A stretch of 64,000 bases of DNA from Candidatus Neptunichlamydia sp. (GCA_965233865.1 OZ247587.1:832001-896000), one strand, 5' to 3'; positions 1 through 4,662 are shown, counted from the stretch's first letter. A program made the numbers and translations. The notes: generated from the letters alone by a model not told the origin.

Positions 1-143
1 TGAGGGTCCTTGATGTGCTTCATCATCTCAAGAATAAGGGCATACGACTTCCCAGCACCCATAGCACCACCAACTACGGCAATGTCCGCAGGACAATTAA
101 AAACTTGGGCTTGAAAACCTTTTTGAACGACTAATCTGGACAA
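1..143 (-). CDS. Phage terminase large subunit, N-terminal ATPase part (runs off the left edge of the window)
   Basis: Manual translation from TTG at 143: MSRLVVQKGFQAQVFNCPADIAVVGGAMGAGKSYALILEMMKHIKDP. The Q-motif plus ADIAVVGGAxGxGKS Walker A is typical of Terminase_6-type large subunits. A G9 SD-like tract lies upstream. Not in the ORF track. Confidence 0.75.
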   Translation of the reverse strand, partial: MSRLVVQKGFQAQVFNCPADIAVVGGAMGAGKSYALILEMMKHIKDP

Positions 144-161
144 GATCCCCCCCCCTTGTAC

Positions 162-196
162 CTATGATTATATCATAGAAAATATTTCTATTTCAA
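162..196 (-). promoter_or_regulatory. Sigma70/sigma66-type promoter for the terminase gene, overlapped by a palindrome
   Basis: Minus strand TTGAAA (196-191), 18 bp, TGa-TATAAT (172-167). Inverted repeat CTATGAT-tat-ATCATAG at 162-178 covers the -10. Confidence 0.55.
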
Positions 197-326
197 GTTT
201 TTAGTGATGAGAATGTGTTGGGAATCTCAATGCTTCAACAAGTACATAAAAAAATATTGGAATTATTATCATTGTTGATGTAAAATTTTTGTGTGAGAGT
301 TAAACAGCTAAATAGAGAGGTTAGTT

Positions 327-626
327 ATGTCTATATCAATAAAAAATCATCCATTTTCTCTTCCTTTTACTATGGTTGCTCTTGGGACTGGGGGATATCA
401 GGCGAGTAGAAGTCATGCAAAGGCAGTCTCTGATTTAGTCTTTGCAAAACATGCCTTAAAGTTTGGAGAACCTAATAAAGCTCAAGAACTAAACTTGCGC
501 AAGCATATTAAGATTAATGAGCTTAAAATTGGAGCTTTAAAAAACATGCCAAAAGGAATAGTTGGGACTATTATAGTAGGTGGCTTGATTTTTGCAGCTG
601 AAAATTATAATAATTCGCAAAAATAG
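327..626 (+). CDS. Hypothetical protein with C-terminal hydrophobic segment
   Basis: 99-aa ORF with GAGAGG SD, AT-rich, no recognisable family. Confidence 0.55.
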   Translation: MSISIKNHPFSLPFTMVALGTGGYQASRSHAKAVSDLVFAKHALKFGEPNKAQELNLRKHIKINELKIGALKNMPKGIVGTIIVGGLIFAAENYNNSQK

Positions 627-817
627 ACACCTCCATTTATACATGTAATGGCATGTAAATATTCTCAATCTGTTTAAGTCAGATATAATCTGTAAAAGAC
701 AGTTAATATTTGGGATTGTTTATTCTATAAAATATTAAAAGTTACATTTTCCTCAGCGTCTTGCTTTGGGAATAGTGATTTTTGTTCATAAATATTATTA
801 ATAATAAAAAAGAATAG

Positions 818-2115
818 ATGTTTACAACTTTTAATAGATCTTGTAGGAGCAATGTATTTTTTAATTTTACAACACAAGGAACACGTGCCTTCAGTGCCAA
901 GACTCCCTCAACTTTGGTATGGGTTCATGGGGCTTCCTCTAATATTGCTAATGCAATTAAAACTAAGGCGATTACAGAAAAACACTTTGTTAAATCTGCA
1001 CAAAGAAAGCCAGGTTACGCCGAAACCACAAAACATCAATACGTCCAACTTTCATCAAATCCAAAGAAACCTCAAGAAGATGCAATATATGACAAAAATG
1101 AGTTATTAAAGCTGTTTGAAAAAAATATACCTACAGGTTTTGCTGGAGAGATTCTTTTTTTTAATGCTGTTGGTGGTGCTCATACTGAAAAATGGAAAAA
1201 TGAAAAAATGAAACTGATTATCAATCACTAGAAAGATTTAATAAGAAATCCTGCATAGCATTTTCTCAAGCGGCAAATGACTTTCTTAAGGGGAAAAATT
1301 TAATTAGAGGAACTTTAATTCACTGCTCATCAATAGCGGCAAAGCTGTTATATAACGATGGTGGATATGGACAAGCAAAATATGAAACTGAAATGGCCTT
1401 AAAAAATGAAGAATTCTCCAATTTTAGAAATATAACAATCATACGCATTGGTTATGCAGTTCAAGACCTTTATGGCCAGAGAAATGTGGGAGCAGCCCAT
1501 GATTTTTCTCCTGAACAATTAGCACTTTATTCACCAGTACAACCAGTTATTCCTGAAGCTGAAGGCACAAAAATTTATCCTGTACATATAGATGATATTG
1601 CAAAAGCCATATTAAATACTTTTAAAAGACGAGAAAACCAAGGGATTGTAGAAATTAATGCTGTTGGAGATTCCGGCTACAGTCTGTCTAAATTCTTTGA
1701 ATTCTATACAAAAACACTAAAAAGGGAATTTATTCCCATAAAAATTTCTTTAGAAGAATTTGATATAATAGCAACAAATTTCCCCCATGGTCATATTGCA
1801 AAATATACTGCAAATTATTTGAACCTTAAAAGCAGCTATCTATGTAACAAATCATTTAAAAATCTAGTTTCAGAAGATTCCAAAACACTGCTAAGCTTAA
1901 CATCTATTCGTGATGCCTTTCATAATTCTGATAAAAATATCGAAGATTTAGCAATCAACAGTCCATTTATTCCTTATGCTGTTACAGTATCTAAGCAAAT
2001 AATCACATCCCCCTATAAAATTAGGGCTTTATCTAAATCACTTTTACCTATCACATTACGTGGGATTAACAAATTTTTGAAACATAAATGGATTGCTCTG
2101 ATAAACAATTTATGA
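818..2115 (+). pseudogene. Atypical SDR / NAD(P)-dependent epimerase (NDUFA9-like), split by a -1 frameshift in an A6 run at 1203-1208
   Basis: Upstream frame: LVWVHGASSNIA (Rossmann-like) and FFNAVGG. The downstream frame is open 1204-2115: LIHCSSIAA, YGQAK (YxxxK), TIIRIG, YPVHIDDIAKAI. One extra A gives a single 432-aa ORF. Confidence 0.7.
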
Positions 2116-2233
2116 TGACATGCATTTTTCTAAAATTCGAGTAACTGAATCAGACCCTTACATCTTGTTTCATAAACTTTTCATTGAGCGTGATACTACC
2201 TAGTAGTAAATATTTAAGCATGCTTATATAGGG

Positions 2234-3422
2234 TGACCTGCTCCCCACAAATTAGTCCAAATAGAAATAGAGGTTCGTATAAACTTGAAAAGCAAGGAGT
2301 ACAAGCATGAAGAAGAGATTCACAGAAGAGCAGATTATTAAAGTTCTCAATGAAGCAAAGATGGGCTTAAAAGTGGAAGAAGTGTGTAGGAAACATGGGA
2401 TATCGCAGCCGACCTACTATAACTAGAAGTCGAAATACGTGGGGATAACAGTCAGTGAGGTTAAGAGGTTAAGAGCGTTGGAAAAAGAGAATCAGCAGCT
2501 TAAGAAACTGGTGGCTGAACTGTCGTTGGACAACGCAGCTCTGAAGGATGTTGTCTCCCGAAAGTGGTAGCCCCACAGGCGAAGAAAATATGCTCTAGAG
2601 TGCTTATGAAGGATTATAAGCTCAGCGAACGTAGAGCATGCAAGCTTGCTGGGGCGAATCGGTCAACCGTTCGCTACAGTTCTAAAAAGGATAAGAAAAA
2701 GATCTTGGAACAAAAGATCAAAGAGATAGCGCTAGAGAATAGAAGATATGGCTACCGAAGGATCCACAGAGTGTTAAGAAGAGAAAAATGGGAGGTGAAC
2801 CATAAAGCTGTTTACCGGATTTATCGCAACCTAGGTTTAAAAGTGCTCAAGAGAGGCGGCAGAAAACGCTCAACAGGAAATAGGAGGATATACAGATTAA
2901 TCACGGGGCCCAACTAGTGTTGGGCCCTAGACTTTGTGCATGACAGCCTATCGAATGGAAGAAAACTGAGGATTCTAGCGGTCATCGATCATTACAGCCG
3001 AGAATGTCTGAGGATAGAGGTGGAGCATGGGCTAAATGGGCAGTCAGTGTTGGAAGCTCTAAACGCTCTTATCCAAGACAAAGGAAAACCGGAGACAATC
3101 CTGAGCGATAATGGAACAGAGTTCACATCAAATAAGGTCCTGAGCTGGCAGAAAGAAGGAAATATCAGTTGGGAATATATAGAACCAGGGAAGCCATATC
3201 AAAACGGCATAGTCGAGAGCTTCAATGGGAAGCTTAGAGACGAATGCCTGAATGAAAACTGGTTTATGGACCTGCAAGAAGCAAAAGAAGTAATCGAAAA
3301 GTGGAGAATCCACTACAATGAGGACTGTCCTCATAGCAGCTTAGATGGACAGACATCTAAGGAAATGGCAATGAAAACAGGAACCTCTATCTAATATTGG
3401 ACTAAAGAATGGGGCAAGGTCA
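2234..3422 (+). mobile_element. IS3-family (IS407-group-like) insertion sequence, inactivated
   Basis: IRL TGACCTGCTCCCCACAAATTAGTCCAA and IRR revcomp TGACCTTGCCCCATTCTTTAGTCCAA. orfA from 2307 (MKKRFTEEQIIKVL) has an in-frame TAG. orfB (2564-3394; rve motifs [21 protein letters not shown]) has an in-frame TAG at 2915-2917. Flanks are AGGG/AGAG. Confidence 0.92.
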
Positions 3423-3669
3423 AGAGGAGGTAGAGTATTTTTTCGGCTCCAATGTGAACTTTCGATATAGCTGCATAAATTTTCCATACGATTTTTTAGG
3501 GAAACTAGCAATGAGTTGCTAGCAAAAAAGTCTTGAGAATTTAAAACCTATCTTTCTTATTATAAGAAAGATACAATCCTTATGGTACTTTTTGGTTCCA
3601 TTGATTGTCATACCCCAATTTGAAGGTAGAAAGAAAGGAGCTCTGGGGTAGAGCTCCTAAAATAAATGG

Positions 3670-4053
3670 TCATTGTTGTTCTGGTGTACGAAGTTGTTGG
3701 GCAAGCAATGTTAAAATAGACATTACCTCGGAGTGGTTTTTTTCAACTCTATCAGACAGTTCTTTGATTTCTTTCTTGGTTTCAACATGGTTTGAATCAA
3801 CTTTTGCTTCTAAGGAATCAATTCCTTGCCTTGCAGCAGATAAGATTTGCTTAGCTATGTCTGATGTTCCAAGAACAACATTCTCCAATTTATTTGCTTT
3901 TACCATAGAATCCGAAAACCCACTTGACATTTCGATTCTTGCAGAGGAAAGATCATTTGACATTCTTTCAACCTTTCCTGAAGTTTCTATGGTTAACTGA
4001 TATAAATCCTGTGAAGTCATTGAGCTTTGTGGAGCCATGTCCTTAACATTCAA
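3670..4053 (-). CDS. Hypothetical coiled-coil protein
   Basis: 127-aa ORF with heptad-like helical composition, no family recognised. Confidence 0.5.
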   Translation of the reverse strand: MNVKDMAPQSSMTSQDLYQLTIETSGKVERMSNDLSSARIEMSSGFSDSMVKANKLENVVLGTSDIAKQILSAARQGIDSLEAKVDSNHVETKKEIKELSDRVEKNHSEVMSILTLLAQQLRTPEQQ

Positions 4054-4254
4054 ATGATCCTTTTTTAGTTGTTCTACATCCGTTTAACATCTCACTATCT
4101 GAGACTGTAGGACATTTAATGTAACACTCATAACTATTCTCCCTTCTTGTTATATTGTTTAGCGAACGATATGATATCACTCTCTATTGGTTAATCACCA
4201 TACCATCAGATTACATTATCAAATAATTATTTCATTTACATTAGCTTCCCATAG

Positions 4255-4662
4255 AATCTCGAAAGCCTCCAGACTCTTCGCAAAGAGCAAGATCGAGTTC
4301 AAAAACGCCTGAACCAGATTTATGATGATAAACTCGATGGTTTGATTGATGAAAAAATGTATTTGGAAAGGGTATCAACCTACAAAGCGCGCCAAATTGA
4401 GATTGTTGAGCAAATGAATCGCCATGAAAAAGCTGATCAAAACTTTTATATCACAGCCAATTTAGTCATGAACTTAGCAGCACGCGCTAGAGAGATTTTC
4501 GAAAGTTCTGAAGCAGATGAAAAACGGCAACTTTTAGATTTAGTATTTCAGGACTTGGAGCTGAAGGACGAAAGTCTTTCACTATCAGTGAGTTAGGACT
4601 TCTTAACGATGGTGGAATTTAAGAAACGTCCGGAAAAATGGGGGTGGTCAGACTCGAACTGA
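4255..4662 (+). pseudogene. C-terminal remnant of a large serine recombinase (integrase)
   Basis: ESLQTLRKEQDRVQKRLNQIYDDKLDGLIDEKMY...EIFESSEADEKRQLLDLVFQDLEL fits the coiled-coil / Y.DKLDG.I.E / EKR.LL..VF pattern of LSR C-termini. 5' part missing; internal TAG at 4594; the frame ends at TGA 4660-4662 inside the tRNA-Tyr antisense. Confidence 0.75.

Follow-up and report, generated by a model that had tools for sequence, protein, structure and literature searches.

Remnant of a large serine recombinase element at the tRNA-Tyr gene of a chlamydial genome and a candidate family of integrases directed at tRNA and tmRNA genes

The closest described systems can be summarized as follows. The 2014 Islander paper states that only tyrosine integrases were known to target tRNA genes (tDNAs) (PMC4383910), and a survey published in 2023 attributes insertions into tRNA genes mostly to tyrosine integrases, while serine integrases leave short duplications (PMC10484663). 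Integrative and mobilizable elements (IMEs) relying on serine recombinases are reviewed as having dispensable genes for insertion sites and very short repeats, which measure 2 bp for Tn4451 (PMC5704250), and for the streptococcal rumA integrative and conjugative elements (ICEs), an attachment (att) site is reported to lie within the terminal part of the serine integrase gene (PMC4701971). In chlamydiae, the island Pam100G of Protochlamydia amoebophila spans 100 kb and is described with an F-like conjugation system and 17-bp flanking direct repeats (PMC548262). Here, we report on a 64,000-nt stretch of the genome of Candidatus Neptunichlamydia sp. (G000:C1:832001-896000, hereafter the window), at the left end of which the remnant of a large serine recombinase (LSR) gene lies against the tRNA-Tyr gene. 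The genome is a single contig of 1,830,388 bp with a GC content of 41.0%, and its gene content is chlamydial, including a fused glyQS gene adjoining pgsA and glgA and the ribosomal proteins L25, S6, and L9; a protein scan likewise gave its relatives chlamydial labels, e.g., Parachlamydiaceae, Rhabdochlamydiaceae, and Waddliaceae. A preliminary description of the window read its first 4,662 nt as the right end of one integrative element at tRNA-Tyr, composed of a terminase, cargo genes, and a serine recombinase.

The last open reading frame (ORF) before tRNA-Tyr corresponds to the C-terminal part of an LSR (Table 1). BLASTP aligned it with 73% identity over 106 aa (E value of 2e-53) to residues 361-466 of a 501-aa homologue that contains the Resolvase, Recombinase, and Zn_ribbon_recom domains, and the frame also matched the phrog_95 integrase profile (E value of 4.6e-4). 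A 70-aa comparison of the remnant with tRNA-Tyr-abutting LSRs of other genomes gave 94-96% identity. The frame is interrupted by an in-frame TAG at 4594-4596; read through this codon in tblastn, it enters the tRNA gene and reaches a TGA at 4660-4662, and the alignment extends to approximately residue 497 with the tail W-G-W-S-D-S-N-stop, as in the intact homologues. This tail is written opposite the acceptor and T arms of tRNA-Tyr. On the other side, the homology starts abruptly at codon 361, at the right edge of a repeated cassette, and the remnant therefore lacks the Recombinase and zinc beta-ribbon domains that intact homologues carry at residues 177-262 and 278-330. The Resolvase catalytic domain with the active-site serine is absent as well, and Pfam found nothing on the 113-aa frame. 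Three full-length LSR queries searched by tblastn against the whole genome produced matches only at 836261-836674, covering the C-terminal 107-138 residues; since they match nothing else, the first 360 residues are gone from the genome. The notion that the 113 codons are a fragment of an LSR gene and mark an old, dead integration at tRNA-Tyr is well supported, in line with the recombinase remnant that had been described as the last gene before this tRNA.

We assigned tRNA genes with ARAGORN and Rfam and protein domains with Pfam and PHROG (phrog profiles). Within positions 1-9000 of the window, Rfam revealed four tRNAs and nothing else, and promoter-like and terminator-like sites were no commoner than in shuffled sequence. 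The tRNA-Tyr gene is present once among the 36 tRNA/tmRNA genes of the 1.83-Mb genome, and its pairing with tRNA-Thr is also conserved beside LSR genes in other genomes. To its left lies a strain-specific block that extends from the end of glyQS to tRNA-Tyr (genome positions 808560-836636; 28,077 bp) and has a GC content of 37.65%, a value reached or undercut by 0.55% of same-size windows of the genome. Across most of window positions 1-4250, GC ranges between 30 and 37% in 500-nt windows compared with the genome mean, the exception being an IS3-family insertion sequence (IS) with 44.5%. Sequence homologous to five same-genus genomes borders the block at window 4636-4639 (right) and at the end of glyQS (left), with IS pieces as the sole matches in between, and a genus-wide search with the block returned the LSR piece and IS or repeat pieces only. 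Beyond tRNA-Thr, core genes follow (SEC-C motif protein, PP-loop ATPase, sodium:solute symporter, and SurE) with 83-90% DNA identity to four same-genus genomes. These results bear out the AT-rich block ending at the 3' end of tRNA-Tyr and the housekeeping genes resuming past tRNA-Thr that the preliminary description had noted, as well as the orphan status of the 99-aa and 127-aa ORFs. In the compositional profile that it had proposed as a check, the low GC content was found; tetranucleotide usage is no outlier inside the window and stands out only at 825-830 kb of the genome (z score of 5.4).

The same site was then compared within the genus. An intact LSR frame (residues 1-497, no stops) ends against tRNA-Tyr in G008, a C-terminal LSR remnant adjoins tRNA-Tyr in G002, and a further remnant stands at a contig start in G004, with no tRNA-Tyr context visible. 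In G006 and G003, a direct repeat of 55-56 nt, which begins in the anticodon loop of tRNA-Tyr and takes in the remaining 3' part of the gene, lies 1.6 kb away from the tRNA. G005 provides the matching empty site, in which the sequence found after the distal repeat of G006 directly follows the tRNA, and G011 is likewise without an insert at tRNA-Tyr; an empty site in relatives, looked for as a check on the integration, thus exists. Because the intact gene, the remnants, the repeats, and the empty sites occur side by side, the tRNA-Tyr site in this genus is one that has been repeatedly used, decayed, and lost. Together with the high identity of the remnant to tRNA-Tyr-abutting LSRs, the intact G008 copy at the same site agrees with the earlier proposal of an LSR-type integration at this gene. 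The only gene of the G006 insert is a Schlafen/AlbA_2-HATPase_c_4 gene. We also observed that a 202-209-aa ORF and a 2H-SAK phosphoesterase gene adjoin tRNA-Tyr in G006 and G005 (L023 1861-3145 and L026 310-1567), and that the same pair recurs in L109 (8749-10436), where it occupies the far end of an LSR element, so that the apparent host neighbors of tRNA-Tyr in G006 and G005 may be old element ends.

Measured against the signature of Islander islands, the genome has the intact tDNA at one end. As to the island integrase, only the C terminus of the LSR and fragments of a second serine recombinase and of a tyrosine recombinase are present. The displaced tDNA fragment at the other end, seen in G006 and G003, was not found here: neither exact 12-30-mers nor blastn-short up to an E value of 50 revealed a second tRNA-Tyr 3' end anywhere in the genome, a search with 9-12-mers uncovered no tRNA-end fragment within the block, even at 9 nt, and the 9-mer core occurs genome-wide at chance level (10 and 6 occurrences versus approximately 7 expected). 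The duplicate of the tRNA-Tyr 3' end that had been envisaged to the left of the window does not exist in this genome.

Collectively, we consider it quite probable that window 4255-4720 represents the decayed integrase-side junction of an approximately 10-kb LSR element of a type widespread in Chlamydiota, that the rest of the block is a patchwork and not the cargo of this element, and that the site is a breakpoint. Such an element would carry the LSR gene at one end and insert into a tRNA or tmRNA gene, with the LSR presumably acting as the integrating enzyme, and it would bring along a duplicate of the target's 3' part, whereby the target gene would stay whole. At tRNA-Tyr, the element-supplied copy would start in the anticodon loop and comprise the final 55 nt or so of the gene, the crossover would probably take place in that loop, and the last codons of the LSR frame would lie on the opposite strand of that tRNA copy. 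In the genome studied here, LSR codons 1-360 have been lost, the remainder contains a stop, and unrelated DNA adjoins it at a sharp junction; an inversion may have gone through or beside the block. The lost catalytic part, the stop, the foreign junction, and the lack of a displaced tRNA fragment suggest that the element is no longer mobile; its immobilization, already assumed in the preliminary description, is consistent with the genome-wide loss of the 360 catalytic residues and of any second att copy.

Table 1. Features of the window and of the low-GC block on its left (window coordinates unless marked as genome coordinates; block items 1 to 9 run from left to right)
Feature	Position	Strand	Remarks
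Block 1: pieces of the ~1.1-kb multi-copy repeat			
Block 2: endonuclease fragment and YhcG nuclease gene			
Block 3: IS5-type copy	genome 813148-813994 (L009 1148-1994)		15 other near-full-length copies, 93-99.4% identity
Block 4: primase-like gene, excisionase-like HTH_17 gene, second serine-recombinase fragment			
Block 5: major facilitator superfamily (MFS) fragment and orphan ORFs			
Block 6: IS200 transposase gene and IS6-type transposase-like ORF (DDE_Tnp_IS240)			
Block 7: two large DUF4135 proteins (542 and 643 aa)	genome 825916-827544 and 828164-830095 (L009 13916-15544 and 16164-18095)	- and +	most AT-rich stretch
Block 8: tyrosine-recombinase fragment			
Block 9: truncated terminase large subunit	1-143 (first 47 codons, 3-143); genome 831142-832143	-	Terminase_6N, E value of 1.4e-16; the window's own ORFs come next
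Orphan ORF, 99 aa	327-626	+	no Pfam or PHROG match; no homologue in the related loci retrieved
Split gene, rare 386-aa family	818-2115	+	ORFs 818-1231 and 1393-2115, different frames
IS3-family IS	2243-3414	+	1172 bp; both inverted repeats; transposase in three ORFs
End piece (~100 nt) of the ~1.1-kb multi-copy repeat	3423-3523	+	8 other copies, 88-99% identity
Orphan ORF, 127 aa	3670-4053	-	no Pfam or PHROG match
Repeated 5'-region cassette (~135 nt)	4126-4264	.	right edge is the junction where LSR homology begins
LSR C-terminal remnant	4255-4593	+	113 codons stop to stop; equivalent to residues 361-466
Putative att identity block	4636-4691	.	tRNA-Tyr 3' part from anticodon loop to end, plus 3 nt
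tRNA-Tyr(GTA)	4639-4720	-	intact; ARAGORN; Rfam tRNA, 56.4 bits
tRNA-Thr(TGT)	4734-4808	-	ARAGORN and Rfam; first conserved host gene past the junction

LSR homologues were sampled from 150 other genomes of the same order and, in a separate scan, from one genome per species; the two resulting tallies, of 11 and 51 loci, share some genomes and are not independent counts. A match was present in 40 of the 150 genomes, and the intact ORFs measured 495-524 aa. Among the 11 loci from the same-order sample, five abut tmRNA, two tRNA-Tyr, and one tRNA-Met, and the corresponding numbers for the 51 loci are 17, 8, and 0. In every abutting case of these tallies, the LSR gene and the RNA gene face each other with their 3' ends, and further abutting loci were found beyond the tallies. 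The remaining 26 junctions of the 51, at which the fragment types were assigned by eye from the sequence and not by a program, comprise seven tRNA-Tyr 3' fragments, six tRNA-Met-like and six tmRNA-like fragments, and seven uninformative cases due to a contig end or a match ending early. All seven tRNA-Tyr fragments stop in the anticodon loop, one of them following an LSR gene deleted after residue 238, and the loop of the six tRNA-Met-like fragments reads CAT. The order of an LSR gene followed by a tRNA-Tyr fragment stopping in the anticodon loop is exemplified by L072, L079, and L104. The frames of intact homologues end inside the complement of the RNA gene, the tail W-G/R-W-...-S-N lying on the acceptor and T arms (L054-L104 and L030-L047). 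We had entertained the idea that integration alters the C-terminal tail of the LSR, and dropped it in view of the LSR genes followed by tDNA fragments, which imply that the tail is element encoded in both the integrated and the excised states. The 3'-terminal 9 nt of tmRNA (CCACCTCCA) and of tRNA-Tyr (CCACCCCCA) are one base apart, a difference that might ease target switching.

The neighborhood of the LSR genes was profiled with Pfam in seven related loci (L041-L047) and in L112, L108, and L109. The usual neighbor is a primase-helicase gene (AAA_25 with a CHC2 finger, DUF927, RepB_primase+DUF3987, or Toprim_3+DUF5906), often accompanied by a SpoVG-like gene or a Schlafen/AlbA_2 gene, and the variable cargo includes restriction-modification systems, methyltransferases, MepB, Fic, MFS, and YhcG proteins and an SbcCD-like set. 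Where short repeats or host genes suggest their limits, these elements span approximately 7-12 kb. G152 carries two units in tandem at tmRNA, each ending in a tmRNA-like fragment with the last 14 nt of tmRNA; the first unit is 10.2 kb long, and the LSR is the sole recombinase among its scanned ORFs. The second unit (L042 = G152:C2:99000-118999, 11136-19352) contains no recombinase and comprises an AAA_21/AAA_15 ATPase gene, a 339-aa ORF, and SbcD-like and SbcC-like genes, a set that may represent defense-type cargo. As a further observation, a gene for a 1676-aa RHS-repeat protein is located just past the intact tRNA-Tyr LSR element of L112 (613-5643, minus strand), adjoined by a small second LSR fragment at 5726-5797.

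On these grounds, we tentatively propose that a Chlamydiota-wide LSR family may specify tmRNA, tRNA-Tyr, and probably tRNA-Met(CAT), that it would restore the target with an element-borne 3' copy that also encodes the last residues of the LSR on the opposite strand, and that it would reside in satellite-like islands of approximately 10 kb with a primase-helicase. The islands would be the serine-integrase counterpart of the classical tyrosine-integrase tDNA islands. Our literature search returned no description of serine integrases targeting tDNAs or of a chlamydial LSR family within its coverage, which mostly leaves out subscription journals, where a prior description is possible.

The 28.1-kb block is a patchwork: it holds remnants of at least three integrative elements (the LSR, a second serine recombinase, and a tyrosine recombinase), transposases of at least three IS families (IS5-type, IS200, and IS3), repeats, and orphan genes. 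The second serine-recombinase fragment has no BLASTP similarity to the LSR family, which rules out that the two serine-recombinase fragments are halves of one gene split by an inversion. The IS6-type fragment is weakly supported, an ORF on the opposite strand covering the same stretch, and no conjugation genes were seen among the Pfam calls for the block. The multi-copy repeat of approximately 1.1 kb exists in the genome as at least four long copies and several fragments, including 808717-809465, 814361-815029, and 830933-831238. The identity among the IS5-type copies suggests recent expansion; G011, for comparison, has more than 40 copies of an IS630-type element. The stretch encoding the two DUF4135 proteins, whose domain matches are weak and one of which has a kinase PHROG match, contains 30-34% GC and is the one place near the window where tetranucleotide usage deviates strongly (z score of 5.4).

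Inside the window, neither the 99-aa ORF nor the split gene nor the 127-aa ORF has a homologue in the LSR-type loci retrieved. The two halves of the split gene align with the 386-aa protein P0002, the first half with 48% identity over 85 aa and the second with 49% over 94% of its length, and the search returned three homologues of this family. No Pfam match at an E value of 0.01 and no PDB sequence match at an E value of 1 were obtained for it. In a language-model look-alike search of the Atlas, all matches of P0002 were epimerase or short-chain dehydrogenase/reductase (SDR) proteins (0.94-0.95); these matches, the sole backing for the earlier label NDUFA9-like, suggest that the split gene possibly has an NAD-dependent epimerase/SDR fold. 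The IS3-family copy has 34-nt inverted repeats (2243-2276 and 3381-3414) that are 74% complementary, and in place of an intact orfA and orfB it contains three ORFs, the first of 43 aa, the second of 117 aa and matching HTH_21, and the third of 152 aa and matching rve from profile position 19; the matches to HTH_21, rve, and rve_3 fall on separate ORFs. No other copy of this IS was found in the genome. With its repeats kept, its transposase in pieces, and no sister copy, it had rightly been called dead. The cassette adjoining the LSR remnant is 78-79% identical to genome positions 1211820-1211958 and 1234299-1234435, where it sits directly upstream of the start codons of unrelated genes, close to genes for ParA and a small resolvase. 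The 127-aa ORF and the 170-aa ORF behind a paralogous cassette share no similarity and have only the 135-nt upstream cassette in common. The two other cassette loci (L113 and L114; genome 1209001-1214000 and 1232001-1237000) also encode a ParA-type ATPase, a truncated small resolvase, RING-finger proteins of 332 and 178 aa, and a Peptidase_M91 effector-like protein; the eukaryote-like RING fingers may mark host-directed effectors.

The terminase appears to have a history of its own. Residues 7-300 match the phrog_979 terminase large subunit (E value of 6.5e-69) and include the ATPase domain, and the homology is lost after approximately residue 300, at the 306-bp piece of the multi-copy repeat at 830933-831238. 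The last 34 codons (residues 301-334) are encoded by the end of the repeat and recur at six other repeat copies, and Terminase_6C, the RNaseH-like nuclease domain present in the 449-aa homologues, is absent. Such homologues occur in three of the 150 other same-order genomes (G051, G094, and G031), each of which has a gene for a 325-327-aa tyrosine recombinase 0.2-2.2 kb downstream of the gene for the terminase large subunit (TerL), on the same strand. This recombinase is 63-71% identical to the tyrosine-recombinase fragment of the block, and the order is matched here, terminase then recombinase fragment, with the repeat piece in between. In G051 (L106 = G051:C3:83500-98405), the pair belongs to a region resembling a tailed phage, which encodes a DNA methylase, TerL (6N+6C), the tyrosine integrase, portal, Mu F, DUF2213, cement, and major capsid proteins; used as tblastn queries, its portal, Mu F, DUF2213, cement, and capsid proteins had no match in our genome. 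By sequence comparison, the terminase is best read as belonging to the remains of a different mobile element, a prophage with a tyrosine integrase, to which the other ORFs of the window are not assigned. Elsewhere in the genome, a second truncated terminase paralogue (439042-440013) is 56-61% identical over residues 4-322 and adjoins an IS5 copy. No similarity was found between the terminase and a 440-aa ORF beside the small-terminase-like gene of L044.

The surroundings of tRNA-Tyr have also been rearranged. In each of the five relatives examined, tRNA-Tyr is followed by a gene for a 256/280-aa protein and then by SET-domain, Methyltransf_24, and DUF378 genes, in some relatives with variable inserts in between. 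In our genome, these neighbors are found at 1,648,850-1,651,708, 813 kb away, where the 256/280-aa gene is cut to its last ~37 codons and has an IS630-type remnant and the uvrC-mutS-dnaG block for neighbors; the dnaG block comes after glyQS in G006, G003, and G010. Gene adjacency points to the tRNA-Tyr site as a rearrangement breakpoint, and the four junctions fit one inversion, glyQS/dnaG x SET/tRNA-Tyr. Such an inversion would explain why the displaced tRNA fragment is missing from its expected place, and it would mean that some of the 28 kb may at no time have adjoined tRNA-Tyr.

The preliminary description had taken the terminase, the NDUFA9-like gene, and the small ORFs for cargo of one LSR element, reaching over window 1-4662 and probably farther left and later immobilized. 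In its favor, the genes in question share a single uninterrupted block, low in GC and strain specific, that ends at the tRNA, some LSR elements carry a small-terminase-like gene, and YhcG-type nucleases recur in or beside LSR elements and also stand at the left end of the block. We nevertheless consider it very improbable, given that related LSR elements measure approximately 7-12 kb and not 28 kb, that the related LSR loci contain no counterpart of the terminase, of the SDR-like gene, or of either small ORF (99 and 127 aa), and that no TerL homologue was found in the LSR-type elements examined. The terminase is cut by a repeat and is paired with a tyrosine recombinase as in the prophages of three other genomes, two further recombinase remnants lie within the block, and the IS3 copy, the repeat fragment, and the cassette, at whose edge the LSR homology begins, separate the terminase from the LSR remnant. 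The colinearity with the tyrosine recombinase indicates, as far as the data go, that the terminase comes from a separate locus, the very circumstance named beforehand as fatal to the single element.

Another account, which we regard as unlikely although less so than the single element, holds that the whole 28 kb accumulated in tandem through successive site-specific integrations of LSR-type elements, a tyrosine-integrase prophage, and others, each at tRNA-Tyr or at the displaced fragment of its predecessor, and decayed in place, with an inversion just outside the array. The tandem units of G152 at tmRNA show that arrays occur in this family, tRNA-Tyr has been used repeatedly within the genus, and genes with homologues in LSR elements are located at the far left of the block. 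Yet no tRNA-Tyr fragment is found inside the block, even at 9 nt, and glyQS, the left neighbor of the block, is not the ancestral neighbor of tRNA-Tyr. The left 6 kb, moreover, are made up of IS and repeat sequences with 93-99% identity to further copies in the genome, which argues for recent transposition or recombination and not for integration.

The preferred reading, a decayed LSR junction beside a patchwork of other origin, is itself weakened by several observations. The tyrosine-recombinase family occurs at four places in the genome, and its adjacency to the terminase could be secondary. The small-terminase-like gene of two LSR elements (L044 and L109) belongs to GP3_package, and packaging genes in LSR-type elements are therefore possible. 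Homologues in or beside LSR elements, 33-42% identical, exist for some genes at the block's far left, namely the YhcG and primase-like genes and ORFs of 82 and 186 aa, so that more of the block than its last 400 nt may descend from elements of this type. The inserts of G006 and G003 are without a recombinase gene, and their link to the LSR runs via the Schlafen/AlbA_2 gene, which also occurs beside the LSR in L045 and L046. Five intact tRNA-Tyr elements (L108-L112) have no convincing displaced fragment within 10-20 kb (E value of 0.05), looser settings yielding matches of 9-16 nt only, and the 55-nt att architecture consequently rests on G006, G003, and the junctions assigned by eye.

Like the islands found by Islander and TIGER, the LSR elements have a presumed tDNA target, a putative restoring 3' copy, the integrase next to the tDNA, tandem arrays, and decay, and the intact tDNA plus displaced fragment is seen in G006 and G003, the fragment being missing in our genome. 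Unlike in those islands, which have tyrosine integrases, the integrase here is an LSR. The intact relatives share with prophages of the phiC31/Bxb1 type, Tn4451-type IMEs, and rumA ICEs the Resolvase, Recombinase, and Zn_ribbon_recom domains in this order, with a coiled coil in the C-terminal region behind them, and an att site within the end of the integrase gene is described for the rumA ICEs (PMC4701971). The prophages, IMEs, and ICEs just named are described as having protein-coding targets and very short repeats, whereas the targets here appear to be tRNA-Tyr, tmRNA, and probably tRNA-Met, and the identity block amounts to approximately 55 nt at tRNA-Tyr and 14 nt at tmRNA compared with 2 bp for Tn4451 (PMC5704250). 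Pam100G is a chlamydial island that also has flanking direct repeats, but differs in its 100-kb size, F-like conjugation system, and 17-bp repeats (PMC548262); the block studied here has no visible conjugation genes.

With their size of approximately 7-12 kb, integrase, primase-helicase, SpoVG-like gene, defense or accessory cargo, and, in two cases, small-terminase-like gene, the intact relatives have satellite-like traits, and they presumably resemble phage-inducible chromosomal islands and other phage satellites. Unlike those islands, however, they are not known to have a helper phage or to undergo induction or packaging, and the remnant in our genome keeps none of these genes beside the LSR piece.

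The block left of tRNA-Tyr is decayed mobile DNA at a hot spot of integration and rearrangement, neither a prophage nor a coherent island, and since its ORFs are mostly fragments or orphans, annotation as decayed mobile DNA follows. There is nothing unusual about the locus as such, a graveyard of mobile DNA; the recombinase family is the less ordinary part. If the proposal for this family is true, LSRs that target tDNAs and tmRNA genes break the rule of island finders that ties tDNA targets to tyrosine integrases, and they supply natural integrase/att pairs for highly conserved sites, in a phylum for which genetic tools are scarce. The family would also explain one recurring class of variable regions in environmental chlamydiae.

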